A stretch of DNA of 38,206 nucleotides from contig JBDGRJ010000002.1 of assembly GCA_042218115.1 (NCBI GenBank), positions 1 through 38,206 on the forward strand, written 5' to 3'. The DNA is from Minisyncoccia bacterium (lineage in GTDB: Bacteria; Patescibacteriota; Patescibacteriia; Magasanikbacterales; UBA922). This document shows positions 15,631-37,341 of the stretch, one piece after another (positions within the stretch are counted from its first letter, which is position 1; every line of letters starts with the position of its first letter). The notes under the pieces were generated by a model, which saw only the letters and a program-made list of their open reading frames with translations, was not told the DNA's origin and made no database searches. Both the position numbers and the translations under genes were made by a program.

Positions 15631-15634
15631 AGAT

Positions 15635-16696: not shown

Positions 16697-16699
16697 AAT

Positions 16700-18613: not shown

Positions 18614-18633
18614 AAACTATTCATTAATTCACT

Positions 18634-18889: not shown

Positions 18890-18934
18890 GTGTAATTTCC
18901 CCTGACCACTCCGGGCGCAGGGGGGTGCCGATCA

Positions 18935-20728: not shown

Positions 20729-20757
20729 GACATCCTCCCGGATGTTAGAGTCAATGT

Positions 20758-20838: not shown

Positions 20839-20903
20839 GTGATCGGCAAATTTTAAAGAACATTCATAAACACCCTCATCACAACATACAACAATCATAT
20901 GCT

Positions 20904-20946
20904 GTGAAAAGGGCCGGGCGAATGGTCGGTGTGTCCATCGCCCGGC
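20904..20946 (-). terminator. intrinsic terminator of the coiled-coil/beta-barrel gene
   Basis: gccgggcgaatgg (20913-20925) / ccatcgcccggc (20935-20946), 12 bp with one bulge. On the minus strand it is followed by ccttttcac. It starts about 24 nt after the stop at 20970. Confidence 0.65.
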
Positions 20947-20969
20947 AGAGATTTTTCGCCAGAATCGGC

Positions 20970-21998: not shown

Positions 21999-22097
21999 GG
22001 TCTGGTCTCCCAGTGAAAGTATGGGTGTAAAACCCGTTAATGAAACGACGCTCTCACGAACCACCTAGGCAAAGCCTAAATGAGTTCGAATAAAGCG

Positions 22098-22131
22098 GGC
22101 AAGAAGTAGAATTTCATCTCTACTCCTTGCC
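22098..22131 (-). terminator. hairpin terminator after the 205-aa gene
   Basis: ggcaagaagtaga (22098-22110) / tctactccttgcc (22119-22131), 13 bp with one mismatch and an 8-nt loop. On the minus strand it is followed by cgctttattcg. Confidence 0.5.
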
Positions 22132-22179
22132 AAGCGACTCTCTGTTCTCATCCAGCGCAGATGCGCTAAGATGAGAGGG

Positions 22180-22797
22180 TCAGGAGTCGCTGTCCTTCTG
22201 GTGACGTTCCCGGATGTCTTGAATCCGATTGGAGACCACGTACTCGTTTTCGAACCAATACGCGATCTCGACGAGATCGCCGCAGTCTCCGGGGCTGTCG
22301 ACATCGGCGCAATGCTCGAGCGCCAATGAGGGGGTGGCCCCGATCAGCCCTTTGTAATCGTTGACGTGCTTCCACACGCCCTTCTTCTTCAGTCGGACCT
22401 TGACCCGTTCCTTCAGCGGCTCCTCTTCGTTCTCGGGCTCGCCGGAGTCGGTCTGATCGGGTTCCTTTCTCTCTTCGGACTGTTCGTCCGGGTCGGCCGT
22501 CTCCTTCTGGGCGGTCTTCTGCTTGTTGTCGTCGAAGTCGGTCGTGGCGGTCGTGGCGTTTCGCAAGATCGGCCATGCGACCAGGACGAACACGGCAACG
22601 GCGCCGAAAAGTGCCGCCAAAACCCCCAACCAAGTAGGGATGCCGCTGCCCGGGTCGCGCATCTCCTCGTCCTCCGGATCATCGGGCCCTTCGGGCTCCT
22701 GCTCGCCTTCCGGCGGCTTAGGGGGGCCGCCCGAATCGTCGGATCCGTGCATCTGGTCGGTTCCGGTTCGATCGCGAGAGTCGTCACCGTTGGACAT
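22180..22797 (-). CDS. bitopic acidic membrane protein of unknown function
   Basis: Strong SD (ataggaggacaaccATG). Acidic/Pro-rich N-terminus, one TM helix (IPTWLGVLAALFGAVAVFVLVAWPIL), an acidic linker, then a ~70-aa C-terminal globular region (VWKHVNDYKGLIGATPSLALEHCADVDSPGDCGDLVEIAYWFENEYVV). The competing frames are Arg-rich shadow ORFs. Confidence 0.6.
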   Translation of the reverse strand: MSNGDDSRDRTGTDQMHGSDDSGGPPKPPEGEQEPEGPDDPEDEEMRDPGSGIPTWLGVLAALFGAVAVFVLVAWPILRNATTATTDFDDNKQKTAQKETADPDEQSEERKEPDQTDSGEPENEEEPLKERVKVRLKKKGVWKHVNDYKGLIGATPSLALEHCADVDSPGDCGDLVEIAYWFENEYVVSNRIQDIRERHQKDSDS

Positions 22798-22980
22798 GGT
22801 TGTCCTCCTATCAAGTCGAGTAGTGAGAGGCGAAAAAGCCTCTCAGGTGAAAAGATCGCAGAACGTAGCCAAAAGCTACTTTAAATATAACGGACTTATA
22901 CTTAAAGCAGCCTTCGACTGTGATTGTAAAAGCGATTATAAGACCATATCATGATAAGACAATTTTGTCAAGTACTAACA

Positions 22981-23021
22981 ACAAAAAAATACAAAAATCT
23001 CACCTTTTAAGCGAGATTTTT
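22981..23021 (-). terminator. intrinsic terminator closing the giant-protein operon
   Basis: Minus-strand RNA reads aaaaaucucgc-uuaaaag-gugagauuuuu followed by guauuuuuuu. The single plus-strand a:c mismatch becomes a G:U pair only in the minus-strand transcript, which supports this orientation. It lies 74 nt after the stop at 23095. Confidence 0.65.
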
Positions 23022-23094
23022 GCTAAATTAAGCGAATTGTTTAATTAAGACTTCTAGCTAAGCCTGAGACGTAATATTTTTAAAAGACGGAGTG

Positions 23095-26000
23095 TTACTG
23101 ATTATCCACTATGTCTCGTACTTCTTCTTTGGCTAGTTCAAAGTTTTCTTTGGCTTGCTTTATTAACTCTTCATCTCCGGTACCCAGGGCTTCTCTCAGC
23201 TGTGTTCTGGCTTCTAAAAGATTTTTTGAAACTTCAGCATCCGGGTTATTTTCTACCCAACCCCAATATTCACCCTTCAATAGATCTACATCTGTGTCAG
23301 GTATTGCATCGCTTCCAGATTCTAACATTTCTTCTAAGCCTGCATCCTCTATCAGATCTGGGTTAAAGTCACTGTATTCAAGCGAAGGGTACTCTTGTAC
23401 CAAATCTTTTATCCTCTCTCTCATGCCCTCCTGTACCGCTTGTGCTTCTTCAGGTGAGACCATATCAGTAATGCCATCATAAAATTTGTCTAATCCGGCC
23501 AACTCTCTGGTCGCTTCATTGTCAATCGGGGTTTCAGTAATACCTTCAGAGCCAAAGACTCTCTGAGCAATCTCTTCTTCGCTAAACTGAAAGCCTTCAG
23601 TTTCTAAAATTTCTGAGATGTTATAGCTTTCATCAAAGTCTATCAAAATATCATTTCTAATATCAGGGAGCCCCTCAAATGATCCGAGCTCTGTAGTCCC
23701 CTCTAGTGCCTCAGTCATCTTTTCCGATATTTCATCCGGATTCTCTATACCGACCCTTTCAGCTGCTTGCTGAGCTGCCTCCGCTCCGCCCTCTTGGTAG
23801 GCCTCTAAAACTTGAGTTTGAGCTTCGTTTATACCCTGCTCGGAAACATCCCCTGCAAAGTCTTCCTCGGAGAATAAATCTATAGCTTCTACCCCTTCTC
23901 CACCCCAGTCAAATTGTATTGCCTTACCCGTAGTTCCGGCCTCTTCTGCTTCTGTAGCGGCAGAAACCGTCTCTCCCACATCAGGTGGGGCTCCTCCAGT
24001 GATGTCTTCTGAAGACTGCCCTTCTGCTGATTCACCCCCTGCTCCACCTGTAGTTGCCCCCTCTTGGCCTATCTGACCTCCACCATTCTCAATCATTGAC
24101 ACCAGCTCATCCGGGCTTGATGGGTGAAGCTCTTCTCCACTATCATCCAGTAGATTTATATCATCACTTTCTATGAGATTATGTACGGCTTCGGGGTCTT
24201 TTACATCCATATTATCGGTAAACATATTTACTTTAAGTTCAGGCTCACCATCTTCAAATACCATACCAACAGTAGTTTCATGACCATCTCCACTGGCCAA
24301 CAGACCGAAATCTTCATATTTGAACCCTTTGGACGGATCTATACCGAATTTTTCTGATTGTAGCACTCGCCAATTGTGGATAACCTGATCATCATTCAAT
24401 CCACCCCACTTATCATGAGACTCTCGTATCTCCTCAGCTAAATTTTCCTTGCCGAACTCTTCTTGTATATCGTTCACCGCATGTAAGAACCCCTCTCCTT
24501 TCTCTACCGTACCTTCAGCTACAACTTCACTTGCAGCTGATTCACTCATCTCTTGGGCTGTTTCTCTTGCTAATTCCTCAGTTGCTCCCCCTGCAGCTAC
24601 CGCTTCTTTAGCTGATTGAGCCGCACCTTCTTCACTTCCAGCTACTGCTTCAGCCCCTCGAGAAAGTCCCCAATAAGCCAATAGGGAGCCGCCGGCTACT
24701 GAAAGCAAGCTTTGCCTTCTTTTCTCGGCAGACAACTCTTGAATTGCAGATTCTGATTTTCTCTCAGCTTCCTTAGCTCGCTGCTTATCCAAAAAGTTTT
24801 CAATCCGGTTTGCTGTTTCATTCTCTCTTCTAACCAGCTCTTGGCCCAACTTTTCATATAGATCCCTGTATCGGCTATTTTTGATCCTTTTAATTTTTCC
24901 TGAAGCTCGCTGAGCTTCTATCATACCCATCTTTTCTTCTATCCTATCCCTGCTCATGTTTTGCAGCTCATCTCTGGAAACATCCCTCAGAAGGCCTGTT
25001 TTTTCTCTTTTACTGAGAGACCACATTTCTAACAAATTGTAAGTTAAATCTTTACCACCCCCAAATCTCATTGCTCCGCCCAGGGCCACCATTCCAAAAC
25101 CAACACCGGTAGTTGCACCTACCATAAATCCACCGTAAGTTAAGGCTATAGTAGAAGCAGTTCTTACGGAAGCTGCCCGACCGAGGAACTCTCCCGCAGC
25201 ACTTAACCAGCCCCCTTCTTCATCGGGTTGTTTTTCTTTTTTCTCACCAGAAGATAAATTATAAACATTAAAGCTACCCAACCACTTCAAAACTTGGTTG
25301 GCCTTGCTGCCTACTTTCTCCAATATTCCTTGATTTTCCAGCATCTTGTCTCTTTTTTTCTCGGCTAGCTCTAGCCTCTCATCAATATCTTTTTCTATCT
25401 CACCCCCAACATACTCTGCCCTAAGCTCAAAGTACTCTTCTTCAGCCTCTTCTAACTCTCGCTTAGCTTCTCTTATTTTCTGCTGATCTTTAAATAAGCC
25501 GAAAAACTTGCCTTGCTTAGCATCTCTCAGCTTTTCTCTGGCGGCAGCGAACTTTTCTCTGGCTCGCTCTACCTCTCTTTTTGAGACAGAAGGTTCTTGC
25601 TCCTCTTCGGGTTCTCCTTCATCTCCCATAGAAACTGCCATTTCATCGAGCAGATCATTTTGGTTCTCTCTGGTCTTTCTTAAGTTATTCTTTATTTTTT
25701 CCCAGATCTGTTCTATCTCTATTTCTTGACCGTTTATTTCTACCTTATTTTTTTTGTCATCTATCTGTCTTAAATAATCTAGTGCATCCTGTGCTTGCTT
25801 TCTTTTCTGTTCACCATAATAGTTAAAGTCTGAAAATCTGGTGAGAATGCCTTGGCCAGACTCCAACAAAGTGCTATATATATCTCTTACTCTTTCATCA
25901 ATATCCACCTCCCCTTCTTCTTGTTCTCCATAATACTTTTTCATTCTAGAGGTATCTACAACTTCTTTTATTCTTTCTTGTTCCTCCTCTCCTATGACAT

Positions 26001-29000
26001 ACTTTTCACCATCTTTCTTTAGTAATCCTCTATCGACTAGTTGTTCTAAATATTCTTCGTCTATCTCTGTATTGACTGCACCTTGTTTCACTTCACTGCT
26101 GGAAACTACTATACCAGAAGAGTCAAACTCAATACCACCATCTTCAACTTTAAACTCAGTAATGCCTGAGGTCGCTATTACTTTTAGCCACTCTTCAGCT
26201 TTTTGCAGACTATCTATGTCCCAACCTTCAACATCTACACTTTCTGACTCAGAAGAAGCTTCCTCGGTAGTTTCTTCTATAGATACAAGCTCTGCAAAGG
26301 CTCTATTTTTCCTTAAATCCAGTTCATTAACCTCAAACTTTACCCTATCACCCACCTCTGCACCCTCTACGTTGACCTTAAAGCCATCCTCCAAATATAC
26401 TCTGCCGGTATCTCCTGGGCCAAGCTCTTCTACCTCACCAGTATAGGTCTCACCTTCTTCCACTGGAGTCTCATTCAATATCTCCTCAACATTTTCAAAC
26501 TTATCTATTCTGTTTCCTACTACCCAAATTTCACCCTCTGGGACCCTTTGATGCTGATCATGACCTACCAGTATACCCAACTCAACTAACCTATCAACTA
26601 CCTCATCTTCAAAATCCAGGTCGTCTTGTTCAAACTTTCCGCCCCTGTCTTCATAATGATTTTGGAGCCAGCTTAAGGCTCGGTCCAGGTCCTCGATCAA
26701 ATCCTCATTTTCGCTGTCCGTTTCCTCCCCCTCTTCGCCTTCATCTTCTGGGCTTTCTTTTGAGACTAGATTTGCCCAAGCTCTTTTAGTTCTAATATTA
26801 ACGTCATCTATATCTTCTATTTCATACTCTATTATATCTCCCATCTCAGCACCTTCTATAATTACCTCATATTCACCATGCTGTATTAGGCCTCTGCCTT
26901 GATGGTCTGTCTCGGAGACTCTACCTTCAAACTTTTGATTTAATTTTGGTATTTCATCCACTATTTCTTGAATGCTATCAAATTTGTCTATTCTGTTCCC
27001 CACTACCCAAAGTTCGTCATCAGGTATTCTATTGTCTCTTCTATCTTCTTCATTGCTTATTAGAATCCCATACTTGATTAGATCATCTATTACTTCCTGT
27101 TCAAAATCCAGATTATCTTTTTTAAATTTGCCGTTTACTTCTTCATGATTATCTTGTAGCCACTCTAGGGCTTGGTCTAAATCTTGTTCTACTTCTATGT
27201 CTGGACCAGTTTCTTGTGTTTGTTGGTTAGCCTCCCTTGTTGTCTCTGAAGGCAGTTTTGCAAAAGCAATACCTCTATCAGGTTTAACATCTTCAACTTC
27301 AAATTCCACAGTCTCACCTTTTTCAGCACCCTCTACAAATACAATAAAATTATCGGAAAAACGTGCTATGCCATCACCCTCCCTGCCTTCTTCTGTAATC
27401 TCTTTCTCGTAAGTTCTCCCCTCTTCCACAGGAGAATCATGTTCTTCAATAATATCCTCCAGACTATCGTGTCTATGCATAGTCAAACCATTGACCCAAA
27501 CTTCACCTTCGGGTACTTGACTCTTATCTTCGTTGCTCAATAAAACCCCGTAACTAATTAATTGATTCAGCAGGTCCCTGTTTATATTTAAATCTTCTTT
27601 TTTAAACTTTCCATCTACTTCTTCATAATGTTCTTTTATATAATTGAATGCACTTTGAAGGTCTTCATTAATCTCGCTAGCCTCTGGTTGGGGAGCGGAT
27701 ACTTGGTCTTCATCATAATCTCTAACCTCCTGTAATTTTACTTTAGCAAAGCCCTCTCTAACAGCTGGAGACCGGCCGGAGTTGGGTTCAAAAATTTTTA
27801 CATCCACTTTAGCGCCCACTAATTCTTCATCAAAATTATTTTTTCCAAACTCCTGTTGTAAAACATTTGTAGTTTCTGGGGTATTTTTAACAAGTAGCTT
27901 GTAATCTATATCTTCCAGCTCAATTACTCCATCGTTATTATCTATTGAGCCAATCTCAACATCGGTGAACTCTTTCCCTTCTTCTATTTCTTCGGGGGCA
28001 TTTTCAATTTCATCCAAGGATTCTAAGATTGTTTTGTAACTCTCGCTGTGTATAACCTTTTTAAATCTATCTGTGATATAGAAATTATCCTCTTCTTGTT
28101 TTATAAATTTATTTTCTATTAATTTAGAAACAAGACCATCAAGATTCTCACTTATTAAACCCCTCAACTCTTCTACTTCTACCTTAGGTTCCTTCTCTTG
28201 GTTTAGGGTCGATTGCCTAAAGAGGTTAAGTTCTAACCAATCTGAAAGCTCTTCTCTACTGGCAAATTCATCTTGAGGCAACTGCTCAAAATGATAGTCT
28301 ATGTTTGCTTCAAGCATATCATTAAGCTGTTGCTCATATTCATCTATAGTATAAGTCGCACCCTCTACTTTAATCTCCTCATTCTCTATATGCTCCTTGT
28401 GAGGGTAAATAATTTGTTTAAATTCACTGATTAAACTTGAAAGTTCGCTCACTCGTTCTCGTTCTAGTATCGGAAAGTCATTCTCGTTCTCTATATCTTC
28501 CAACTCATACTCATGCAATGATATAATATCACCCATTATCTCACTCAGTTCTTCTACCTTTCTTTCTCCCATAACCTCAGCTAACTCCGAGATAGAGAAA
28601 CCTTGCGGGTTTACAACCTCTGAGATCTCAATATCCACGAAATCACCCACCTCATAATCATTATCATCAGAAAAGACATCTTTTACGATCACATTTCTGC
28701 CATTAATTTTGACTAGCCCGTCACCAGTTTTTTCTCCATCCTCTTCCAACTCTTTCACAACCCTTTGGGTATATCTTTGGCCTTGCTCAAACTCACCGGC
28801 TTCTATGACAGGATACTCGTGTTGTTCCGGTAATATGGTGGCATAGGCTACATCATCTTGGGTATTTACTCCCGTAATTTCAATCTCTTTTGTTTCGTCA
28901 TAATCTGAAGGTATGGCATTTCGTATCTTTAAGTTAAACCCACCAAAGGTATTAAACATATTTAGTTCAGATTCTTCTTCATTATAAACCCCCTCTTTAA

Positions 29001-30894
29001 GCTCAAGCCGAAAAGTCTCGCCTTCTTCTACTGGGCTGGTGCTTTCTTTAATTTCTCCGAAGTCTTTTTCTGCTACAATCCTATATTCATCTTCTTCTAA
29101 GTCGTCATTCTCTTCTACTGATTCTAAGACACCCGCTCGCTGAAGTCTCGAGATTACTCTATCCGGAAATAAAGAAAGTTCATCCTTTTTAACTGTATCC
29201 CCTAGATTGTACTTATGGTTTTTAAGCCATCCATTTGCGAACTTAGTACTATCAATAGTTTTACCTCCTATTACCTCAGCAGAACCGTTGCTCCCGTGAC
29301 CACCAACATTCGTAATTTTTATATCTACTACATCACCCTTCTCGACCCCGGCATTTATATACACCCTATTTCCAGCAGTTGTTTCTATATAGTAATCTCC
29401 ATCTTCTTTCTTTTGTGATATCTTTACATCTCTTATAATGCTTCCTTCGGAAAACTCATTTTCTGTAATTTCTTCCCGAATTTCATTCGGTTCCGGGGCT
29501 GGTTCGGGCTCAGTGTCTGCATTTGAATCATCATTTAGTCCATCAGCCGCCTGCTCATGAAAGCGCTCACTCTCCTCAATGACCTCTTCTAAAAACTCAA
29601 GCTGGTCTTCATAGTCTTGATATGTACACTCTTCACTCAAGCCGTATTCCTCAAGAAGCAATTCAGGGTTATCATCATACTCTTCCATTTTTTGCTCAAA
29701 ATTACTTTTTTTGTTTTTTAACATTTCCAGGCCCGCTTCATCATATATTGGCTCACTATATTCATCGGGATACCTCTGAGAATCCAACTCATGAGACTGA
29801 AGCTCACCTCTAAAGCTTAAAATCTCAGAAATATCATCGGCTACAGAAAAATCCTCCTTAGCTTCCACGATTTCTTTAAAAGCATCTAATAACTCCCGGA
29901 CCTCCACTTGTCCGAGGTTATTAAACTCTACTGTGACACCATCTATATCAAAGTCTAGATCCTCTTTCTCATCTTTAGCATTTTGAAAACCTACCTCTAA
30001 TCTTTCCAACCTTAGATCATCTAAGACCTCCCTTCCTATTTTTATCTCTCCTGAAGCATCTCTAGCTAATCCTATATTTGGTAATTTACTAACTACTTTT
30101 TCAGCAGACCATTTCTCCAATTTCTCTTTTATTTCTTCCTGCTCAAAACTGTGCTCTCCGGAAGTATCTATAATGCCTTTGTCTATCCAGTCTTGCTTCC
30201 ATCCATTGCCTGAGTTGTAAATTTTCTCCTCCCAAAGCTCTTCCCAGCTCTCTTCGTCCAACTTCTCAAACTCTTCTGTAAGCACCTGTTTTATATCTTC
30301 TTTGGTAGCGCTATCTAAGTCAGCATCATACAAAGCTCTCAAAACCTGCTCTTCTGTCAAACTCACTTTAGTCAAACCCTCTTCTTCTGCATAATCTTCT
30401 ATCCGACTCAAATCTGATACGACATAGGAGTTCTCACCAGAATTGTATTCTACTCCATTATTTCTTAGCTCTTCTAGTATCTCTCTTAACTCATCCGTAT
30501 CTACTTGATTAAAATTTCTCGCAGCAAGCCCTAAATTACCAGCTACCATCTGATAGCCATTCTCTCGTTTCAGAAGCCAATCAATAACTTCAGCCTTTTT
30601 CTCAGAAGAGACAAAACCTTCTGCTTCTTCTCTAAATTCACCAGTAATTAAATCTTCTATATATTCAACGGCATCAAAGTCGTCCTCATGAGCACTCCAC
30701 AAAAAATCATCTAGTGAAATACCATGGCCATCTAAAATACCCCTTAAAGTTTCACTGACTTCCGACTCATCTATCAGACCGGAAGACTCTTTAAAAGTTT
30801 CTAAATCACTTAAAATATCCCCCTTCTCTTGAGGAGATAAATTGTTTAATTCATGTTGTATAGAACCTTTTTTATCCTCTAAATTTTCTATCAT
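23095..30894 (-). CDS. giant (2,599 aa) hyper-acidic protein with about 7 TRAM-like beta-barrel modules, a central Gly/Ala-rich membrane hairpin and a C-terminal acidic region
   Basis: A single uninterrupted ORF with no N-terminal signal peptide. TRAM-like modules lie at nt ~26290-29450. Hydrophobic block GGWLSAAGEFLGRAASVRTASTIALTYGGFMVGATTGVGFGMVALGGAMRFGGG is at ~25055-25215. A second hydrophobic segment, RRQSLLSVAGGSLLAYWGL, is at ~24640-24725. No catalytic motif recognised. Confidence 0.85.
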   Translation of the reverse strand: MIENLEDKKGSIQHELNNLSPQEKGDILSDLETFKESSGLIDESEVSETLRGILDGHGISLDDFLWSAHEDDFDAVEYIEDLITGEFREEAEGFVSSEKKAEVIDWLLKRENGYQMVAGNLGLAARNFNQVDTDELREILEELRNNGVEYNSGENSYVVSDLSRIEDYAEEEGLTKVSLTEEQVLRALYDADLDSATKEDIKQVLTEEFEKLDEESWEELWEEKIYNSGNGWKQDWIDKGIIDTSGEHSFEQEEIKEKLEKWSAEKVVSKLPNIGLARDASGEIKIGREVLDDLRLERLEVGFQNAKDEKEDLDFDIDGVTVEFNNLGQVEVRELLDAFKEIVEAKEDFSVADDISEILSFRGELQSHELDSQRYPDEYSEPIYDEAGLEMLKNKKSNFEQKMEEYDDNPELLLEEYGLSEECTYQDYEDQLEFLEEVIEESERFHEQAADGLNDDSNADTEPEPAPEPNEIREEITENEFSEGSIIRDVKISQKKEDGDYYIETTAGNRVYINAGVEKGDVVDIKITNVGGHGSNGSAEVIGGKTIDSTKFANGWLKNHKYNLGDTVKKDELSLFPDRVISRLQRAGVLESVEENDDLEEDEYRIVAEKDFGEIKESTSPVEEGETFRLELKEGVYNEEESELNMFNTFGGFNLKIRNAIPSDYDETKEIEITGVNTQDDVAYATILPEQHEYPVIEAGEFEQGQRYTQRVVKELEEDGEKTGDGLVKINGRNVIVKDVFSDDNDYEVGDFVDIEISEVVNPQGFSISELAEVMGERKVEELSEIMGDIISLHEYELEDIENENDFPILERERVSELSSLISEFKQIIYPHKEHIENEEIKVEGATYTIDEYEQQLNDMLEANIDYHFEQLPQDEFASREELSDWLELNLFRQSTLNQEKEPKVEVEELRGLISENLDGLVSKLIENKFIKQEEDNFYITDRFKKVIHSESYKTILESLDEIENAPEEIEEGKEFTDVEIGSIDNNDGVIELEDIDYKLLVKNTPETTNVLQQEFGKNNFDEELVGAKVDVKIFEPNSGRSPAVREGFAKVKLQEVRDYDEDQVSAPQPEASEINEDLQSAFNYIKEHYEEVDGKFKKEDLNINRDLLNQLISYGVLLSNEDKSQVPEGEVWVNGLTMHRHDSLEDIIEEHDSPVEEGRTYEKEITEEGREGDGIARFSDNFIVFVEGAEKGETVEFEVEDVKPDRGIAFAKLPSETTREANQQTQETGPDIEVEQDLDQALEWLQDNHEEVNGKFKKDNLDFEQEVIDDLIKYGILISNEEDRRDNRIPDDELWVVGNRIDKFDSIQEIVDEIPKLNQKFEGRVSETDHQGRGLIQHGEYEVIIEGAEMGDIIEYEIEDIDDVNIRTKRAWANLVSKESPEDEGEEGEETDSENEDLIEDLDRALSWLQNHYEDRGGKFEQDDLDFEDEVVDRLVELGILVGHDQHQRVPEGEIWVVGNRIDKFENVEEILNETPVEEGETYTGEVEELGPGDTGRVYLEDGFKVNVEGAEVGDRVKFEVNELDLRKNRAFAELVSIEETTEEASSESESVDVEGWDIDSLQKAEEWLKVIATSGITEFKVEDGGIEFDSSGIVVSSSEVKQGAVNTEIDEEYLEQLVDRGLLKKDGEKYVIGEEEQERIKEVVDTSRMKKYYGEQEEGEVDIDERVRDIYSTLLESGQGILTRFSDFNYYGEQKRKQAQDALDYLRQIDDKKNKVEINGQEIEIEQIWEKIKNNLRKTRENQNDLLDEMAVSMGDEGEPEEEQEPSVSKREVERAREKFAAAREKLRDAKQGKFFGLFKDQQKIREAKRELEEAEEEYFELRAEYVGGEIEKDIDERLELAEKKRDKMLENQGILEKVGSKANQVLKWLGSFNVYNLSSGEKKEKQPDEEGGWLSAAGEFLGRAASVRTASTIALTYGGFMVGATTGVGFGMVALGGAMRFGGGKDLTYNLLEMWSLSKREKTGLLRDVSRDELQNMSRDRIEEKMGMIEAQRASGKIKRIKNSRYRDLYEKLGQELVRRENETANRIENFLDKQRAKEAERKSESAIQELSAEKRRQSLLSVAGGSLLAYWGLSRGAEAVAGSEEGAAQSAKEAVAAGGATEELARETAQEMSESAASEVVAEGTVEKGEGFLHAVNDIQEEFGKENLAEEIRESHDKWGGLNDDQVIHNWRVLQSEKFGIDPSKGFKYEDFGLLASGDGHETTVGMVFEDGEPELKVNMFTDNMDVKDPEAVHNLIESDDINLLDDSGEELHPSSPDELVSMIENGGGQIGQEGATTGGAGGESAEGQSSEDITGGAPPDVGETVSAATEAEEAGTTGKAIQFDWGGEGVEAIDLFSEEDFAGDVSEQGINEAQTQVLEAYQEGGAEAAQQAAERVGIENPDEISEKMTEALEGTTELGSFEGLPDIRNDILIDFDESYNISEILETEGFQFSEEEIAQRVFGSEGITETPIDNEATRELAGLDKFYDGITDMVSPEEAQAVQEGMRERIKDLVQEYPSLEYSDFNPDLIEDAGLEEMLESGSDAIPDTDVDLLKGEYWGWVENNPDAEVSKNLLEARTQLREALGTGDEELIKQAKENFELAKEEVRDIVDNQ
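26290..27700 (-). repeat. three tandem coding repeats of about 480-490 nt (helical unit plus TRAM-like barrel)
   Basis: Units begin at ~27670 (LQSAFNYIKEHYEEVDGKFKKEDL...), ~27190 (LDQALEWLQDNHEEVNGKFKKDNL...) and ~26700 (LDRALSWLQNHYEDRGGKFEQDDL...). Each ends in an EGAE-x-GD-x-[VI]-x-[FY]E[IV] barrel. Confidence 0.8.
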
Positions 30895-30913
30895 AGATAA
30901 AAGTTTTATTTAC

Positions 30914-31222
30914 TTAAATATCAAGATCGCTGACCTTATCTTTCAATTCCTGCTTTACTTGTAGCACCTCCTGTCTTAACATATCTTCAAAATCATCTAT
31001 CTGCTCCAATAGTGAATTGACCTTCTGCTGGTTTTGGTTGTCTATAGCGTCTATAAACTCTTGTCTCTGCTTTTCTGAAAACTTGTCTATAACTTTATTA
31101 AATAACCGCTCTTGAACTAAATCGGTCGCTTTTCTTAAGATTCGTGCCTTCCTTTCATCATCCAATGACTCAATGCCTAAAATGGAAATTATATTTTCTT
31201 GTAATAAAGATTGAGAATCCAT
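30914..31222 (-). CDS. small helical protein (102 aa), DUF5663-like; partner of the 2,599-aa giant
   Basis: ILGIESLDDERKARILRKATDLVQERLFNKVIDKFSEKQRQEFIDAI...VLQVKQELK. This pattern matches, from memory, the CPR-restricted small helical family I believe is Pfam DUF5663 (to be verified). It is homologous to ORF 36317..36658 and ends 19 nt before the giant gene. Confidence 0.7.
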   Translation of the reverse strand: MDSQSLLQENIISILGIESLDDERKARILRKATDLVQERLFNKVIDKFSEKQRQEFIDAIDNQNQQKVNSLLEQIDDFEDMLRQEVLQVKQELKDKVSDLDI

Positions 31223-31256
31223 ATCGTAAAATTAAATATTTTAAAAATTTTTGAAA

Positions 31257-34200
31257 CTAAACTGACTCCCTAAGCTGTTCCAATTCTTCTTCTTGGGTTT
31301 GTTGTAGCCTCTCTTTCATCAAGACCAACTCTGCTGCTACTTTATTCAGTTCTTTTAAGTCCTCTATTCTCTGCTCAATCTGTTCTTGATCCTCCAGCTC
31401 ACTAATAGCATTTACCTCGCTTTCTATTTTTTCTTTTACTCCCGCCAATGCACCTCCTCCTTCCAAAACAAACTCAAGCCCCTCTTGAAGTTCTCCATCA
31501 CTGCTGTCTTCTCGCATATCCAAAGCTTGCAGATAAGCAAACTCAGTCTGAAGGCTGTCAATATTTCCATTCCACTCCTCGGATCGGTTGATCATATCAC
31601 CAAATCTATCTCCAAATTCTCCTCTCTCCGGCATCTCAACATCATATATTTCATCTAACTCCTCTTTAAACTCACCGTCCTCATTTATCACTAATATATC
31701 TTCAAGCTCTTCAAATCTATCCCCTCTTTCTTGTTCAATATCTTCTACGGTCTCCATCTCCATCATCTCTTCCTTTACTGCAATAACAGTTCTAAAATTC
31801 TCATTGAACTCACCTATATCTACATCAGCACCTGCCTCCATTGTGTCGGGGTGATTATTAAACAACCAAGTCTCTTTCATCTGCTCCAACTCAGACAAAG
31901 TGAAATCAGAAATTCTCGCATCTTCTTCCAAGTTGAGCTCCTCTTTAACGTATTGCCAAGCCTCTTGAAATTCTTCGCTATTTTCCAGCTGATCCTCATA
32001 AATTTCCACAGCTGTTTCTTCACTTTCTTCGGCCTGCATCATAACCTCTTTAGGTACTGGAAGACTTTCGGGGCTACCTTCTACCTTGGTTAATGCGGAG
32101 GTAGGTCTTTTTATAGGAAGCTTATCTTCCTGTCCGGTAGGTGGTGGAGGAGTTGGCCCCGGACCATCAGTAGTGGTTCCTCCGCCTCCGCCGCCACCTT
32201 CATCATCATCGTCTGTCTCTTCTCTTTGTCTCCTCTCAGGTTCTATACCCGCTCCCACTTTTTCTCCGGAATGAGGATAAATATCGAAAGCAGGAAATAC
32301 ATTCGGGCCATCTTCAGCAGTAGGCTCAGTGAGAGTTACTTCATTCATATAGCTATTTACAGTCTCCGCAGCCATTTCAGCTGATACAGCTGAATCCGGA
32401 GTTCCTTGTCCTTGTACAGATGAGTAGATTAAAGCTTTATCACCTTGAGCTTGATCAGAACCATGTTCAACAATCTCCATCAGATCGGCTTTCAAAACAG
32501 CCTCACCACCTGGCCCTTCTTCAAAGCACATATCATATGCCGGGTGGCTTTTAGGTATTTCTACTGATCCATCCGCATCGAAAGGAATCTGAAAACGTTC
32601 TGCTCCAGAAGCTTCTTCTGGTCTAATCTCCAAGAACATCCTTCCTTCACTTAGTGCTTCATTGGGTTTACCAATAATATCAGAGGGAAAGTCAGTTTGA
32701 GAGCCTGCTATCTGTTCTCCCTGGGCATTGGTGGCAAATTCTTCCATATCGATCTTAAACTCAATATTTCCCTGACCATCAAAGCCGCTCTCAGATACTC
32801 CCCCCCAGTAGCTTCTCAACTCATTAAAATCATAAGTATCAGGAGTCTCATTTCCTAACCAAATTTTATCGGATTGATCAAGTTGATACACATCAGACAT
32901 TTTATCTGATAGCTGGTCCATTTTGTCTGCTGCCGGTACTTCACTCATCTCCCATCCACCCATGATACTTTGTACATTTTCACTCATACCACCTTGGGGC
33001 ACAATCCCCTCGGAACCAAGACGGTTAATGGTTTTTTGAGTTAGGGCCCCTGTTTTATGATTAAAGTCTAGTGGAACTTGATCACCTTCCGGAGTGAACA
33101 GCTCGGCCTCATGAGAGCCGGAACTGGGCTGAATATTAAAACCTTCAGGTAGATTTATATTTAATTCACCACCACTCAGCTGCATGGTTTGTGAATGATC
33201 GGGCGCCAGATAATTTATAGAGTCTTTTGCCCCACTTATCCAATCACCCATAGAATCCAATACACTCGCTGCTACAGTCTGATTTTCTCCCTGCTCCCAG
33301 CCTGCGATAAAATCGAATACACCTTGAGTTTCTGGTTCGCTAGTCCAACTTACTGCATTGGATCCTTCCCAACCCAGCTCTGCCGTCTCTGCCAGTGCGG
33401 CACCGCCGATCATACCAAAGGTGCCTGCTGCCGTAGCTTCTCGTAATGCCTTTTGTCTACGATAACTATCGAAGTGTTCTTGCAGTTCTTGCTCATACTC
33501 TGAATAGGCGGGTAAGAATCGCTCTTGATATCTGTGTTCTATAGTTTGATCGATTGTGTCAGGAGCTATGTTATGTTTTTCTTTTAAGCCTTGTTTGATT
33601 TCAGCTTTTAATACCATCAAATTTGCATGAATATCTTCAGTTTCTCTGGCTTGATAATTAATCATATTTCTGTTTTCGTCACGCTCGAATTTCTGTCTGT
33701 TTTCTATCTCAGCTAACTGCTCCATTACTTGTTCCAACTCTTCGTCAGACAGGTCACCTCGAAGCTCAAAGCTATCGTCTTTACAATATTCAGTCTGAAA
33801 CCTGTCTACAAAATTTTCTGCATTTAGCATTTCTAATGAAAACTGCTCCAGCTCTTCTCTGAACTCCTCCTCTTCAACAGTCTCTTCCCCTCTAGCTTTT
33901 GCCTCCTCAACATAAGCTTGTTGTTCTTTTAACCTTTTAGAGGATTCAAAATATTTACCTACTCCAACACCAGCACCAAGCCCAACCAGACCTCCTACTG
34001 CTGAGCTAGCTCCGTAAGCGGCTCTTTGGCCTAAAAATCCTGCAGCTCCTGCTGTAGCTCCAACTACACTCGCTGCATTAACCGGAACTTTTTCTGCAAT
34101 TTTTGATTTTTGTACCGCATCCACCATCTTGTCAAGCGCTCCATACTCTTCTTCCGCTTCCCGTTTAAATTTAGAAGCGGCTTCACCGATGGTGACATCC

Positions 34201-36296
34201 ATCTGTTGTACTTGATCCAGATGAATTATACCGTCACGTACACCTTTAGCAATCTCTAGGGAGTTATCTGCAAATACGGAAGGTGGCGGTATGTCTTCAT
34301 TGCCAAAATGTTCTTCCATTATGTCATTTTTTTGCTCTAAAAACTCGGCTTCGGACATATCGCCTACAGCAAAATCAGCTATTAGATCATGTATATCTTC
34401 TTTTAGTGCCTCTCCTCTCTCAGAATTTACCTCCATATACTCATCTTCTTGCAGTGCTGCTTCACCAAAATCTTCATCAAACCGCTCCATCAGAGATTTT
34501 ACAGCTTTTCTATTGTCTTCTTCGTCCACTATATCTTCCTCTCTACCAGCATAAATATTGTTTTCATCTTCTTTTTGAGTCCTTGACTCCCTAAGCTCCT
34601 TATTTTTTTGGTAATTTTTACTAATACCTTCTATGAATCCACCGGCACCTGAAAAGAAAGAATTTACTACTCCTTGAGCTTCGCCAGCTCTTTCAGCAGC
34701 TCTTTTGAAAGGAAAGCTTACCGTCTTTTTAATAGTCTCCCAAGTACCTTCTCCTTCCATCTCCTGTTTTCTCTCTTCTTCTACCTCTTTTTGCGCCTCA
34801 AACCGAGCTTGTTTTTCTGCTAGATCAGAAGCATCTATGGCTTTCAGACCTTCATCCATTAACTTTTCCAATCTTTCTCGGCGTCCACCCCCTTCTCCTC
34901 CTTCTGTTCCAGTATCTGTTGTGCCTGTAGTATCTTCCTCCTCTTCTCTTTGTTTTAAAATGTCGGTTGTCTCACGTAAAATAGCTAAATGTTGAGCCAA
35001 AGCATTTTGCTCACGATCAGATAAATTCTGTAGGCCGCGATCTTGTATGTCTACGGCTTTCTTTTGGCTTCTATCACGCATCTTTTTAAGATCCTCAGTA
35101 TCTCTATCTGAATAATCAAAGCTTTCCCGCATCTCCTTTACCCTCTCTTCAATCATATCTGCGATCATCTCAGCACTCAGCTCGTCTTCTATTTTTTCAC
35201 CTTCTTGTTTCTGGTCCTCGCTTTCCAGGTGAGAAGTGGCTTCTCTAAGGTGGGCAAAATTTTGGGCTAAAGCATTTTTTTCTCGCTCTGATAGTTGATC
35301 CAAGCCATCCTCTCTTATTCTTTTTTGAAATTTTTGAACTTTCTTTTGACTTTTTTCTTTAATTTCTTCCAGTTCCTCCTGGCTCCTCTGTTCATAGTTC
35401 AAACCCTGCTGTATCTCATCAGCTCGAGCCAATACTGCATCCGCAAGATCTTCTGCACTAGCACCTTCACTCTCTTCCGCTTCCTTACCTCTGGAGATTT
35501 CCATTATCTCATTAGTTATTTTATCTAACCGTTTCTCGATCTCTTTTATCCCCATAGTTTCACCTTTGCTGTCTATACGGTCAGCTTCTTCTAACTTATC
35601 GAGAAGCTCTTCTTTTTGGTTTATAAGCTCCTGCAGTCTTGATTGTTCTTTTTCTGATAAATTAGCCGACCACTCCTCTCTGGAAGCACTTATAATTTTA
35701 TTGGTGACTTTATCTAATTCTGACTTAATATTATCAATTTCGCTTTGACGGCTAGTATTTTCAAGTTTTTGTTTTAATTCTTCTTTATCCTCGATTAACT
35801 CATCCAGATCTTTTTCTGCCTCTGCCCCAGTTTGCTCCGAAGCAGGTTCGGCTTTGGCTTCTGGTTCTTGATCGCCCCCCTCTTGTAAGTAACCAGAGTT
35901 AGCCTCTTTTATATAACGTTCAAGTCGGTCTTGATCGAGATTTGAATTTTCAATTTTTTTATCTAGTTCCGACCTAATTTTTTTCAGCTCCTCTTCAACC
36001 TTACTAATTTCGTCATGCTCATAATCCATACTCTCCAATTCTTCACGTAATTTCAGCTCTTCCTGTTTTAGCTCAGCAATAGGTTGAGCCTGCTCCCTAG
36101 CTTCTATCTCCTCTCGTATATCATTAATTTCTCTCTGTAGCTCTTCTCGTTCGCTCTTGTCCGGTTCGATATCCTCAAGCTCTTCTAGTTCATCTTGTAG
36201 ATCTTCTATGGCTTGCTGGTTAGAATCTAGTTCTTTTTTACGAGCCCCGCCCTCTATTGTAGCCTCTGGCGGGCGACCTGAAGTTTCTCTACTCAT
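31257..36296 (-). CDS. giant (1,679 aa) hyper-acidic coiled-coil protein with a central Gly/Ala-rich membrane hairpin
   Basis: A single ORF with no signal peptide. The N-terminal ~750 aa are E/K/D/Q-rich with internal repeats. Hydrophobic block VPVNAASVVGATAGAAGFLGQRAAYGASSAVGGLVGLGAGVGVGKYF is at ~33955-34095. A second segment, RRQKALREATAAGTFGMIGGAALAETAELGW, is at ~33370-33440. The linker DDDDEGGGGGGGTTTDGPGPTPPPPTG is at ~32140-32225. Confidence 0.85.
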   Translation of the reverse strand: MSRETSGRPPEATIEGGARKKELDSNQQAIEDLQDELEELEDIEPDKSEREELQREINDIREEIEAREQAQPIAELKQEELKLREELESMDYEHDEISKVEEELKKIRSELDKKIENSNLDQDRLERYIKEANSGYLQEGGDQEPEAKAEPASEQTGAEAEKDLDELIEDKEELKQKLENTSRQSEIDNIKSELDKVTNKIISASREEWSANLSEKEQSRLQELINQKEELLDKLEEADRIDSKGETMGIKEIEKRLDKITNEIMEISRGKEAEESEGASAEDLADAVLARADEIQQGLNYEQRSQEELEEIKEKSQKKVQKFQKRIREDGLDQLSEREKNALAQNFAHLREATSHLESEDQKQEGEKIEDELSAEMIADMIEERVKEMRESFDYSDRDTEDLKKMRDRSQKKAVDIQDRGLQNLSDREQNALAQHLAILRETTDILKQREEEEDTTGTTDTGTEGGEGGGRRERLEKLMDEGLKAIDASDLAEKQARFEAQKEVEEERKQEMEGEGTWETIKKTVSFPFKRAAERAGEAQGVVNSFFSGAGGFIEGISKNYQKNKELRESRTQKEDENNIYAGREEDIVDEEDNRKAVKSLMERFDEDFGEAALQEDEYMEVNSERGEALKEDIHDLIADFAVGDMSEAEFLEQKNDIMEEHFGNEDIPPPSVFADNSLEIAKGVRDGIIHLDQVQQMDVTIGEAASKFKREAEEEYGALDKMVDAVQKSKIAEKVPVNAASVVGATAGAAGFLGQRAAYGASSAVGGLVGLGAGVGVGKYFESSKRLKEQQAYVEEAKARGEETVEEEEFREELEQFSLEMLNAENFVDRFQTEYCKDDSFELRGDLSDEELEQVMEQLAEIENRQKFERDENRNMINYQARETEDIHANLMVLKAEIKQGLKEKHNIAPDTIDQTIEHRYQERFLPAYSEYEQELQEHFDSYRRQKALREATAAGTFGMIGGAALAETAELGWEGSNAVSWTSEPETQGVFDFIAGWEQGENQTVAASVLDSMGDWISGAKDSINYLAPDHSQTMQLSGGELNINLPEGFNIQPSSGSHEAELFTPEGDQVPLDFNHKTGALTQKTINRLGSEGIVPQGGMSENVQSIMGGWEMSEVPAADKMDQLSDKMSDVYQLDQSDKIWLGNETPDTYDFNELRSYWGGVSESGFDGQGNIEFKIDMEEFATNAQGEQIAGSQTDFPSDIIGKPNEALSEGRMFLEIRPEEASGAERFQIPFDADGSVEIPKSHPAYDMCFEEGPGGEAVLKADLMEIVEHGSDQAQGDKALIYSSVQGQGTPDSAVSAEMAAETVNSYMNEVTLTEPTAEDGPNVFPAFDIYPHSGEKVGAGIEPERRQREETDDDDEGGGGGGGTTTDGPGPTPPPPTGQEDKLPIKRPTSALTKVEGSPESLPVPKEVMMQAEESEETAVEIYEDQLENSEEFQEAWQYVKEELNLEEDARISDFTLSELEQMKETWLFNNHPDTMEAGADVDIGEFNENFRTVIAVKEEMMEMETVEDIEQERGDRFEELEDILVINEDGEFKEELDEIYDVEMPERGEFGDRFGDMINRSEEWNGNIDSLQTEFAYLQALDMREDSSDGELQEGLEFVLEGGGALAGVKEKIESEVNAISELEDQEQIEQRIEDLKELNKVAAELVLMKERLQQTQEEELEQLRESV
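34951..35463 (-). repeat. two tandem 270-nt (90-aa) coding repeats in the 1,679-aa gene
   Basis: gggctaaagcatttt at 35264 and gagccaaagcatttt at 34994 are 270 nt apart. Protein copy 1: ASAEDLADAVL...SQKKVQKFQKRIREDGLDQLSEREKNALAQNFAHLREATSHLES. Protein copy 2: LSAEMIADMIE...SQKKAVDIQDRGLQNLSDREQNALAQHLAILRETTDILKQ. Confidence 0.75.
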
Positions 36297-36316
36297 GTTA
36301 TCTTTATTATTTTTGT

Positions 36317-36658
36317 TTACTGCCTAGAAAGATACATATTCCTAACCTGAAGAATGGCATTACTAAGGATATTATCCACACCATCTACATTTGCTTGAAT
36401 AAACTCTCTAATCTCAGCTGGGTCCGGGTCTTGATCCAACAATTCATCAAACTGGTCTGTTAACCCCTCTTCAGACATGTATTTGACTACTTTATTGTTA
36501 AAAAGATCGTTTATTTCCCCCTCTATGTCATCAATCATCTGTTCTCTAACTTCATCATTTCTAACTTCTAGATCTCTTTCTTCAAAAATACGCTCCGCTG
36601 CCTCTCTAGTAGTGAATTGTGGGGGCTGTTGTGTTTCTGGGGCTGAGTTTTCAGGCAT
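36317..36658 (-). CDS. small helical protein (113 aa), DUF5663-like; partner of the 1,679-aa giant
   Basis: INDLFNNKVVKYMSEEGLTDQFDELLDQDPDPAEIREFI...AILQVRNMY aligns with the 102-aa protein (LFNKVIDKFSEKQRQEFIDAIDNQ...EVLQVKQEL). It ends 20 nt before the giant gene. Confidence 0.7.
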   Translation of the reverse strand: MPENSAPETQQPPQFTTREAAERIFEERDLEVRNDEVREQMIDDIEGEINDLFNNKVVKYMSEEGLTDQFDELLDQDPDPAEIREFIQANVDGVDNILSNAILQVRNMYLSRQ

Positions 36659-36709
36659 AATTTTATATTAATTTTTAAACTTAAACCTTGAGGAAATTAT
36701 ATCAAAATT

Positions 36710-37336
36710 TCAGCCAAACCAAAAATGATGCTCCTGCTTTTTCTTATACCACAAATACCCAAAACTTACAACAATACCTACAAAAAACCCGGCAATCGTG
36801 TTTATAATCAAATTCGGCTTAGTCGGGTACTCGGAGACCAACGGTGGGTTTACTACTTTCAGGTTCACTTTCTGACCGATGTAGTTGCTAGTTTGATTCA
36901 AAAGCACCTCGAGTACTTCTTTGTTCATCTTTTTTGCTTGCTTTGGCTCTACATGGTAAGTGCTTACGGTAAGCATACCGGTGCCGTAGTTTAGGCTGGC
37001 ATCTACCGACTCCCGCCATAGCTTACGCCGCTCTCGCTCGGATAGACCAGAAAACTGCTTGGACAGCTTTGAATCATCCAAATTAGAGGTCACCTTGGCA
37101 AAAAAATCATTGGTCTCTACGATATTGGCCAGATTTTCACCGATCTTCTTAGCTGAGCGCATAGCGGTGTAAGCATCCAGTCCCTTCTCGCCTTTGGTTA
37201 TTACTATCACTTGAGAATCTGCTTGATATCTGAGAGGAAACAAAAGCGAGACTAATAAAAATAATACAGCCGCTACCAGCCCGGTAAGTAATATTGAATT
37301 AAATCCCTCTTTGAGAATCTGCAGTGGGTTATTCAT
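36710..37336 (-). CDS. Wzz/polysaccharide co-polymerase-like chain-length determinant protein
   Basis: 208 aa with an N-terminal TM helix (ILLTGLVAAVLFLLVSLLF), a periplasmic-type helical region, a Pro-rich motif (NPPLVSEYPTKPNLIIN) and a C-terminal TM helix (IAGFFVGIVVSFGYLWY). This is the PCP family layout. Confidence 0.7.
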   Translation of the reverse strand: MNNPLQILKEGFNSILLTGLVAAVLFLLVSLLFPLRYQADSQVIVITKGEKGLDAYTAMRSAKKIGENLANIVETNDFFAKVTSNLDDSKLSKQFSGLSERERRKLWRESVDASLNYGTGMLTVSTYHVEPKQAKKMNKEVLEVLLNQTSNYIGQKVNLKVVNPPLVSEYPTKPNLIINTIAGFFVGIVVSFGYLWYKKKQEHHFWFG

Positions 37337-37341
37337 AAAAT

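Follow-up and report, generated by a model that had tools for sequence, protein, structure and literature searches.

The stretch of DNA analyzed here, called the window below, comprises 38,206 nucleotides (nt) of contig JBDGRJ010000002.1 from a Minisyncoccia bacterium (assembly GCA_042218115.1; Patescibacteriota, Magasanikbacterales). In it a small protein of the Pfam family DUF5663 is encoded next to a very large protein, and this combination is conserved across the Patescibacteria. It is a real, conserved and undescribed gene pair of the candidate phyla radiation (CPR), and it is new as far as the searches made here extend. The window holds one clear copy, S2/G2, and one divergent copy, S1/G1, which is recognized by its layout only.

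The names S1, G1, S2 and G2 are used, in transcription order, for the genes of 113, 1,679, 102 and 2,599 amino acids (aa), all of which are co-directional on the minus strand. S1 (36317..36658) encodes an acidic helical protein that is divergent but DUF5663-like by profile and hidden Markov model (HMM) methods, and G1 (31257..36296) a hyper-acidic helical protein, an orphan that has the layout of the large-protein family. S2 (30914..31222) encodes a DUF5663 protein (PF18908) with a predicted compact, all-helical fold, and G2 (23095..30894) a hyper-acidic member of the DUF5663-linked large-protein family, as identified by BLASTP and a core HMM. The intergenic spacings are 20 nt (S1/G1), 34 nt (G1/S2) and 19 nt (S2/G2). 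The leaders are A/T-rich and devoid of a Shine-Dalgarno motif. An intrinsic terminator with a 15-bp stem and a T-run (22991..23023, minus strand, read from 23023 to 22991) is the sole strong site after G2. An earlier reading of this DNA, made from the sequence alone (the sequence-only reading), had described four open reading frames (ORFs) with these gaps and a single terminator behind the last gene; the coordinates, strand and lengths of the ORFs proved exact, and the gaps and the terminator were confirmed.

The concern that the giant ORFs might be an assembly artifact was not borne out. Two Logan contigs (SRR28304479) are 100% identical to the window at 35542-37442 and 28022-31716, covering the Wzz/S1/G1 junction and the G1/S2/G2 junction, and all reading frames are intact in a related strain with ~80% DNA identity. 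In comparison with this strain, dN/dS is 0.087 at the C-terminus of G1, 0.023 in S2 and 0.093 at the N-terminus of G2, values (0.02-0.09) that indicate purifying selection.

A two-gene module conserved across Patescibacteria

The large-protein family is defined here by a core profile of ~340-370 aa (alignments A3 and A7). Motif searches seeded by DUF5663 alone yielded 32 non-redundant loci (designated by L numbers), at least two of them from a metagenome scan. The loci span Magasanik-, Doudna-, Sacchari-, Campbell-, Kerfeld-, Portnoy-, Parcu- and Paceibacteria. In 23 of the 32 loci DUF5663 directly adjoins a core-family gene on the same strand, which is downstream in 11 and upstream in 12; this count takes in the neighbors in L017 and L026, which join the family through hhalign (97.5% probability, E 7e-12). 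One further locus has the core gene two genes from DUF5663. The gaps within the pair are mostly <60 nt. Precomputed Pfam annotation also places DUF5663 next to the core gene in two loci that were seeded by the core. In the other eight loci, a VirD4-like ATPase stands beside or near DUF5663 in place of the core gene (L018, L020, L021, L025, L027), ftsZ lies downstream of DUF5663 on a 1.9-kb contig without a core gene (L012), the DUF5663 gene is at the contig end (L014), or DUF5663 is followed by an acidic ORF of which 408 aa are present before the locus ends, so that the frame stays open (L036). The association of a small DUF5663 protein with a large protein containing Gly-rich segments, which the sequence-only reading had proposed, is genuine, and the two constitute a Patescibacteria-wide conserved module. 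S1 and S2 are like the DUF5663 family as recorded in Pfam, which consists of stand-alone helical proteins of ~100 aa, mostly from Patescibacteria. The constant pairing with a large core-bearing protein is not on record in the sources searched. A literature search on DUF5663 and PF18908 returned no papers, and the family has neither a function nor a structure assigned to it.

The relatives are all from Patescibacteria, which supports the CPR origin supposed for the window. An archaeal origin of the Nanohaloarchaeota type, raised by TRAM and aIF2-beta matches in G2 and by the acidity of the giants, was rejected because the window encodes an ECF sigma factor, DUF5667 and DUF5663, in addition to the exclusively patescibacterial relatives. 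Loci L014, L017, L021-L024 and L032 have CPR gene content but are labeled, for example, Gammaproteobacteria, Bdellovibrionales or Margulisiibacteriota, and these bins are probably mislabeled. L024 (labeled Margulisiibacteriota) encodes the same proteins as L015 (labeled Patescibacteria).

S2 scores 31.9 bits against the Pfam gathering threshold of 23.7 for DUF5663 (E 2.1e-7). Exhaustive phmmer searching found 353 representative clusters related to S2 at E<=1e-3, nearly all of them stand-alone proteins of ~100 aa. The AlphaFold2 (AF2) model of S2, built from a 66-sequence alignment, is confident and all-helical (predicted local distance difference test score, pLDDT, 89.6; predicted template modeling score, pTM, 0.74), with neither a transmembrane (TM) helix nor a signal peptide. 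Foldseek searches with the model returned nothing meaningful, the best matches having E 3.2 in the PDB and E 1.3 in BFVD. The closest relative of S2 (42% identity) is encoded in L001, a Magasanikbacteria metagenome-assembled genome (MAG), where the gene order mirrors that of the window: an acidic giant fragment, DUF5663, and an acidic core-bearing giant. Among the DUF5663 proteins, P0133 (591 aa) has an N-terminal DUF5663 domain fused to a strongly hydrophobic, polytopic membrane domain without a Pfam match. Either this is a Rosetta-stone clue to an action of DUF5663 at the membrane, or the fusion was produced by gene calling.

S1 has no Pfam match at E<=0.1. It aligns colinearly with columns 18-94 of the 66-sequence DUF5663 profile (hhalign, E 2.3e-5, probability 76%), is recovered in a DUF5663 HMM search at E 5e-7, and matches individual DUF5663 genes by phmmer at E 5e-6 (L025, L027) to 2e-4. 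S1 is likely a remote member of DUF5663 that lies under Pfam's own threshold. The assignment to DUF5663 stands for S2 at the level of Pfam, and is likely for S1, which lacks a Pfam match, at the level of profiles. The sequence-only reading had aligned S1 and S2 with each other (NKV[IV]K..SE ... [VI]LQV[KR]). This is indeed their top BLASTP alignment; by itself it is not significant (E 0.49), and the homology is seen through profiles. By phmmer, the best relatives of S1 are DUF5663 genes beside VirD4-like ATPases (L020, L021, L025, L027), and those of S2 are DUF5663 genes beside large core-bearing proteins. This suggests two DUF5663 subtypes, one adjacent to the VirD4-like type IV coupling proteins (T4CPs) and one adjacent to the core. 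Since their best relatives differ, S1 and S2 appear to have diverged as paralogues long ago, possibly into two subtypes, and not to stem from a recent duplication. As the loci show both gene orders, the partner of S2 may be either G1 or G2.

The conserved core and the two giants

An iterated core HMM run over the ORFs of the loci collected 27 members of 667-2,599 aa in which the position of the core is variable. Conservation is confined to the core, and the extensions at both termini vary freely. The core begins with two to three long helices. These are followed by a Gly/Ala block that is flanked by Arg and has a median of 26 uncharged residues, by a helical spacer of ~120 aa, and by a second Gly/Ala segment with a Lys/Arg cluster in front of it. 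Conserved helix motifs are AR..Y..AKK and EY..RAEYVG, followed by KLGxxN. The Gly-rich block has the consensus R.L.[SN].RTAIS.GLLG.G...G.G.AVG...RR...G.G..GSY, after which come a helix (S.e.v.erm..iEAr..dG), a coiled region, the basic cluster and the second Gly/Ala segment. A word-index homology search with alignment A3 retrieved 9 proteins of one subfamily. A DNA scan for core motifs, which gave 53 chance matches and 1 true match, served as a negative control only.

Searches of the large family against Pfam, NCBIfam, PHROGs, PADLOC and PDB sequence profiles gave no match to the core. PDB profile searches with A3 and A7 returned nothing under E 0.01, Pfam had no match in six other family members, and PHROGs produced only a TRAM-level match. 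The regions equivalent to the G2 C-terminus contain no recurrent Pfam family in 22 members. A LysM-like reading of a post-membrane GDS[IL]W motif was dropped, as Pfam gave no support for it in any of the 22. Pfam and NCBIfam found no SMC, SLH, Ig-like or adhesin domains in G1 or G2. Characterized families such as S-layer or SMC-like proteins were not matched by the giants; nothing was found for G1, and G2 matches only TRAM and winged helix-turn-helix (wHTH) families. The statement that no described system has this architecture holds against the literature on DUF5663/PF18908, in which there are no papers, and against the databases, in which the core has no match.

G2 is the clear window member of the family. 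Its core (aa 1768-2134; 24493..25593, minus strand) was recognized by BLASTP, the core HMM and alignments A3 and A7. It matches the large neighbor in L002 at E 1.6e-32, those in L006, L003 and L007 at E 6e-9 to 3e-7 (BLASTP), and the iterated core HMM at E 1e-84. The core contains the RAEYVG and KLGxxN helices, a Gly-rich hydrophobic block with Arg on both flanks (aa 1907-1945; 25060..25176), a helical spacer with MIEAQ, and a second, weakly hydrophobic Gly/Ala segment after RRQ (aa 2058-2081; 24652..24723), both segments being defined by composition and hydrophobicity. The variable C-terminal region (aa 2135-2599; 23095..24492) is composed of 465 aa of Ala/Glu/Ser/Gly linkers plus acidic domains. 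The N-terminal 1,770 aa begin with an acidic helical stretch and continue into an array (aa 470-1652; 25939..29487) in which TRAM-like beta-barrels are combined with winged-helix domains, as identified with Pfam, NCBIfam, self-BLAST and a repeat HMM.

The array, which was missing from the description in the sequence-only reading, contains at least 7 TRAM-like barrels and no fewer than 6 winged-helix domains, arranged as tandem modules of ~160 aa. Three full 160-aa wHTH+TRAM repeats span aa 1078-1237, 1238-1398 and 1402-1559, and repeat HMMs place further units at aa 470-541, 553-693 and 696-778. The Pfam match to TRAM (PF01938) scores 54.6 bits against a cutoff of 21 (E 9.7e-15) and that to HTH_45 25.6 bits against 25.5; the NCBIfam matches are PyTRAM and the aIF2-beta C-terminus. 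The G2 repeats share domain-level similarity with TRAM, the archaeal TRAM RNA chaperones and winged-helix HTH_45. Known TRAM proteins are small, or the domain is part of RNA-modifying enzymes, whereas G2 has at least seven copies that alternate with wHTH domains.

G1 has the layout of the family, with a DUF5663-like gene upstream, an acidic helical N-terminus, a weakly hydrophobic Gly/Ala-rich block (aa 733-784; 33945..34100, minus strand; Kyte-Doolittle hydropathy 1.2-1.4; 68-75% Gly/Ala/Ser/Thr), a spacer, and RRQK followed by a second Gly/Ala segment (aa 950-974; 33375..33449; composition and hydrophobicity). The layout that the sequence-only reading had ascribed to both giants, with two Gly/Ala blocks, an RRQ lead-in and no signal peptide, is thus present in the ranges given there. 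In the comparison with the family layout, the two Gly/Ala stretches of G1 were placed at aa 741-780 and 954-969, and the G1 motif LSDEELEQVMEQLAEIENR is colinear with the position of the family's S.e.v.erm..iEAr helix. The G1 spacer of ~173 aa is longer than that of any family member (69-145, median 120). A full-length word-index search of 5.8 billion clusters with G1 returned only the self-match, and the homologue in the related strain has 83.6% aa identity. BLASTP detects no similarity between G1 and G2. The core HMM score of G1 is -3.8, which was equalled by 44 of 500 local shuffles, and its best BLASTP match to the family is E 0.011, to L001d. On balance, G1 is probably homologous to the large-protein family. 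The sequence-only reading had the two-gene unit duplicated in tandem, a view that is not upheld: G1 is below significance against the family profile, and S1 is nearer to the T4CP-adjacent subtype than to S2. G1 also has internal repeats (aa 280-357 with 374-447, 47% identity, E 2e-11; aa 164-206 with 221-269) that are unrelated to the TRAM/wHTH repeats of G2.

The orphan status of G1 and the insignificant BLASTP comparisons of G1 with G2 and of S1 with S2 would be expected if the locus were no system at all, but acidic ORFs of low complexity and fast evolution that happen to follow one another in a halophile-like genome, with unrelated giants, incidental small genes and an acidity that is perhaps driven by habitat. 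Such an explanation is very improbable. The pairing is kept in 23 of 32 loci, the homology of the G2 core is strong, three profile methods place S1 in DUF5663, dN/dS is 0.02-0.09, and independent assemblies are identical.

Recurrent neighbors and the surroundings of the window

Neighbor families were defined by all-against-all clustering and Pfam searches. A VirD4/TrwB-like ATPase of 800-900 aa is encoded within three genes of DUF5663 in 7 of the 32 loci (L004, L016, L018, L020, L021, L025, L027), with 47-79% identity between loci. By chance ~0.4 loci would be expected, as estimated from ~2 T4CPs per genome (PMC12102498) and, by our own estimate, ~1,000 genes per genome. L004 and L016 have the core gene first, then DUF5663, a gene for a small acidic protein and the ATPase, and in L009 the ATPase is 7 kb away. 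A small acidic family of 130-186 aa recurs between DUF5663 and the ATPase (L016, L021, L027, L035). In L018, a zf_Tbcl_2 zinc-finger protein follows DUF5663. Patescibacteria encode 5,713 VirD4-like T4CPs, of which just 148 are near virB4, and exaptation for other roles has been raised as a possibility (PMC12102498). That survey mentions neither DUF5663 nor the large neighbor, and it reports the T4CP to be non-essential for epibiotic growth in S. epibionticum (PMC12102498).

The second recurrent context is cell division. The ftsZ gene is directly beside DUF5663 in 3 of 32 loci, L003 (8655-9851), L033 (3083-4270) and L012 (1056-1904), and two gene orders occur among these loci. L008 and L009 carry the pair downstream of mraZ-rsmH and a small FtsL-sized gene, a slot that is usually the position of ftsI.

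The sequence-only reading had instead placed the window genes in an envelope operon with a Wzz-like and a PDZ protein. Upstream of S1, across a 51-nt gap, is a Wzz/CpsC-like two-TM protein (36710..37336, minus strand) with N- and C-terminal hydrophobic segments, the N-terminal one a strong TM helix. All of its matches are below cutoff (Wzz 17.7 bits; GNVR 17.3 bits; TIGR01006 E 3.7e-8, 33 bits against a cutoff of 296), and the match of the upstream same-strand PDZ protein is likewise weak and sub-threshold. The surrounding genes of the window belong to a polysaccharide locus and encode GT4 glycosyltransferases, Wzy_C and GHL15. This Wzz/PDZ/polysaccharide context does not recur in the other surveyed loci, where the VirD4-like ATPase and ftsZ recur instead; the envelope-operon argument is not supported.

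Directly downstream of the G2 terminator is a GC-rich island (18600-23000; 0.55-0.62 compared to ~0.40 elsewhere) that either was acquired horizontally or stems from a chimeric join in the assembly. An rRNA operon was ruled out as the GC-rich stretch, as Rfam and tRNA scans were empty. Three minus-strand genes lie in the island. One (18935-20728) codes for a Cys-rich, lipoprotein-like protein of 597 aa in which collagen-like GPKGDPGEDG motifs occur, another (20970-22064) for a protein of 364 aa that has a signal peptide and a coiled coil and whose beta-rich C-terminus ends in GFRVKF, and the third (22180-22797) for an acidic single-TM protein of 205 aa. The GFRVKF ending resembles that of outer-membrane proteins, which is odd for monoderm CPR bacteria. 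Toxin-antitoxin genes lie inside the glycosyltransferase cluster (14041-16963), namely HEPN (14041-14436) together with a nucleotidyltransferase (14423-14749), a MazE-like antitoxin (15309-15572) and ParE (16700-16963). The ECF sigma factor (6483-7040) is followed by the DUF5667 protein (4900-6465) and by an acidic 1,303-aa ORF (777-4688) that has no Pfam or PADLOC family match.

The toxin-antitoxin genes and the GC-rich island near the pair, together with the VirD4-like gene near it in some loci, raise the possibility of mobile-element cargo, in the form of a prophage tape-measure protein with its chaperone or of a conjugative-element module. The pair resembles tape-measure proteins in that these, too, are long helical proteins that contain Gly-rich hydrophobic stretches and have small acidic chaperones. 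Mobile cargo is nonetheless a far-fetched explanation. There is no PHROG match beyond TRAM-level noise, the surveyed neighborhoods contain no phage or relaxase genes, and chromosomal contexts (ftsZ, mraZ, topA, gyrB) in many CPR classes indicate a core gene pair. Mobile elements and chance ORFs are both largely excluded as explanations of the pair.

Possible membrane association and function

Neither G1 nor G2 has an N-terminal hydrophobic segment, and therefore neither has a signal peptide. The Gly/Ala segments of the family consist of 55-75% Gly/Ala/Ser/Thr, and their insertion into a membrane is plausible. In 21 members, the 12-aa flanks of the first block have a mean net charge of +2.7 before and +1.8 after, and those of the second segment +3.8 before and -0.3 after. 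Under the positive-inside rule, these charges would put both ends of the first block in the cytoplasm, as in a re-entrant or interfacial hairpin, and would orient the second segment in-to-out. Many members have Pro/Ala/Glu-rich linkers behind the second segment, which by inference may resemble wall-spanning linkers. Glycine-zipper hairpin proteins with GxGxGxG motifs, such as Mic10 and those of the ATP-synthase c-ring type, are comparable in that a Gly/Ala-rich block between basic residues could form a tight hairpin. However, the family has no sequence relationship to Mic10 or the c-ring, and its block is inside a ~370-aa core of very large proteins.

The acidity of the giants is likely to be a separate matter. 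Asp and Glu account for 25% of both G1 and G2, whose net charges are -234 and -389, respectively. In other family members the content is 12-22%, and only the giants of the window and L001 reach 25-27%. L001 belongs to the DAL-Ass MAG series from hypersaline Lake Assale (Danakil), whose brines are known for strongly acid-shifted proteomes, and the other window proteins have a mild acid shift. Hyper-acidity, presented in the sequence-only reading as a trait of the system, is not shared by the family at large and most plausibly reflects adaptation of the lineage or to the habitat (salt), amplified in long, solvent-exposed helices.

The explanation we favor, at about an even chance of being right, is that the large protein is a membrane-held platform which, with its cytoplasmic DUF5663 partner, serves the VirD4-like ATPase and/or the divisome. 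The Gly-rich block would anchor the large protein to the cytoplasmic membrane by forming a re-entrant or interfacial hairpin whose flanks are both inside, and the second Gly/Ala segment would be a weak in-to-out span. The N-terminus would be cytoplasmic, where in G2 the TRAM/winged-helix array could dock nucleic acid, and the linker-rich C-terminus would be outside the membrane. Tight packing of the genes would allow DUF5663 to be made in step with the large protein. It would bind this protein in the cytoplasm, acting as its partner or chaperone, and would most likely sit over the Gly-rich block or the conserved helices. Together the two would then provide a platform for other machines, the candidates by neighborhood being the FtsZ divisome and the orphan VirD4-like ATPase. 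A lineage or salt adaptation would account for the extreme acidity of G1 and G2, which would lie outside this mechanism.

Several observations weigh against such a platform. The Gly/Ala segments have simple Hessa sums of +1.7 to +5.3 kcal/mol (+3.1 to +5.3 for those of G1 and G2, and +3.5 to +5.3 for the first block of G1), compared to -4.3 kcal/mol for a TM helix of the Wzz-like protein and -6.9 for one of a CPR T4CP, and uncharged residues in the second segment number only 16 at the median. On this simple sum the G1 and G2 segments are not classical TM helices of 19-23 residues with favorable insertion energy, and the "membrane hairpin" of the sequence-only reading is weakened to a plausible span. 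G1 and G2 may insert as hairpins or oligomers. The AF2 model of the G2 core, from a 10-sequence alignment, has a pLDDT of 39, and only helicity is visible in it. The TRAM/wHTH array was found in G2 only and cannot explain the function of the family. No T4CP or ftsZ gene is encoded in the 38-kb window, which is part of a 72.6-kb contig, and such neighbors occur in a minority of loci that may represent few lineages. Finally, the core profile gives G1 hhalign probabilities of 1.7% and 7.4%; its homology is not significant and is unproven, so that speaking of two instances in the window is partly based on layout.

If the divisome alone is considered, the large protein could be a membrane-anchored coiled-coil organizer, with DUF5663 as a Zap-like factor and the VirD4-like protein as a septal translocase. 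EzrA, MapZ/LocZ and DivIVA are membrane-anchored coiled-coil organizers of this kind, and the family is like them in its long helical cytoplasmic regions, its possible N-in/C-out anchoring and its occasional ftsZ or mraZ neighborhood. The two gene orders in which ftsZ adjoins DUF5663 (L003, L012, L033), the placement of the pair in the usual ftsI slot (L008, L009) and a CPR distribution broad enough for a housekeeping role also fit a factor in division or morphogenesis. We nevertheless regard this as a minority possibility. A dcw/ftsZ context is present in only ~4 of 32 loci and not in the window, searches of Pfam, NCBIfam, the PDB and Foldseek found no similarity to known divisome proteins, and two copies per locus with extreme length variation would be unusual for core parts of the divisome.

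The T4CP adjacency in 7 of 32 loci is open to a further interpretation, in which the large proteins remain in solution within the producing cell and leave it by VirD4-dependent export, the Gly/Ala hairpin inserts into a target (host) membrane, and DUF5663 is the chaperone or T4CP adaptor. Hydrophobicity under the level of constitutive TM helices is typical of soluble-to-membrane proteins, a conserved hydrophobic center lies between highly variable termini, no signal peptide is present, and a small acidic helical partner is encoded directly beside the putative client. Precedents include translocators of type III secretion systems (T3SS) with class II chaperones, colicin hairpins, VirE1-VirE2, and the LXG toxins of type VII secretion systems (T7SSb) with Lap1 and Lap2. 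In the T3SS and T7SSb pairs a large helical protein likewise has a gene for a small helical partner next to it, and the likeness extends to central hydrophobic segments or variable ends. Legionella DotL-IcmS/IcmW/LvgA and Agrobacterium VirE1-VirE2 are adaptors or chaperones of type IV secretion systems (T4SS) that are small, acidic and helical, are encoded beside large clients, and act with a VirD4-type ATPase. The pair is like them in its small acidic helical partner beside a large protein and its VirD4-like gene in 7 of 32 loci.

The differences make a secreted client rather unlikely. The flank charges fit a resident N-in/C-out protein, the pair is also found in ftsZ and mraZ contexts, and export of a 2,599-aa protein with folded TRAM/wHTH domains is hard to picture. 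Foldseek found no structural match of DUF5663 to known secretion chaperones or adaptors. The LXG, WXG, TPR-chaperone and translocator domains of the T3SS and T7SSb pairs were not found, and the pair is CPR-specific with different contexts. Compared to the T4SS adaptors, there is no similarity in sequence or fold, no T4CP is encoded in the window, and what is conserved is a central Gly-rich core and not a C-terminal signal. Most Patescibacteria T4CPs are away from virB4, and the T4CP is reported to be non-essential for epibiotic growth of S. epibionticum (PMC12102498). The divisome organizers, too, share no homology with the family, and most loci, including the window, are without dcw genes. 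As a whole, the pair displays no defining feature of any of the characterized systems with which it was compared.

Patescibacteria constitute a large share of bacterial diversity, and most of their conserved genes are without an assigned role. The gain at present is a phylum-wide two-gene module, a searchable core signature and a confident model of the small partner. G2 would have an unprecedented architecture, that of a probably membrane-associated giant with an array of RNA- and DNA-binding domains. Two functional leads are offered, one by ftsZ and the other by ~5,700 VirD4-like ATPases for which no connection to the Patescibacteria T4SS was found (PMC12102498). VirD4-like ATPases are near-universal in Patescibacteria and are not encoded with virB4. 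The DUF5663/core pair could be their missing membrane partner in a CPR-specific translocation apparatus that differs from the canonical T4SS and in which the G2 array would dock nucleic acid at the membrane for export, uptake or partition at division. This proposal is doubtful as it stands, and it is the most valuable testable lead. If the link is true, the role of the orphan ATPases would be directly testable in the Saccharibacteria, which are genetically tractable carriers of the pair (L005, L018, L034).

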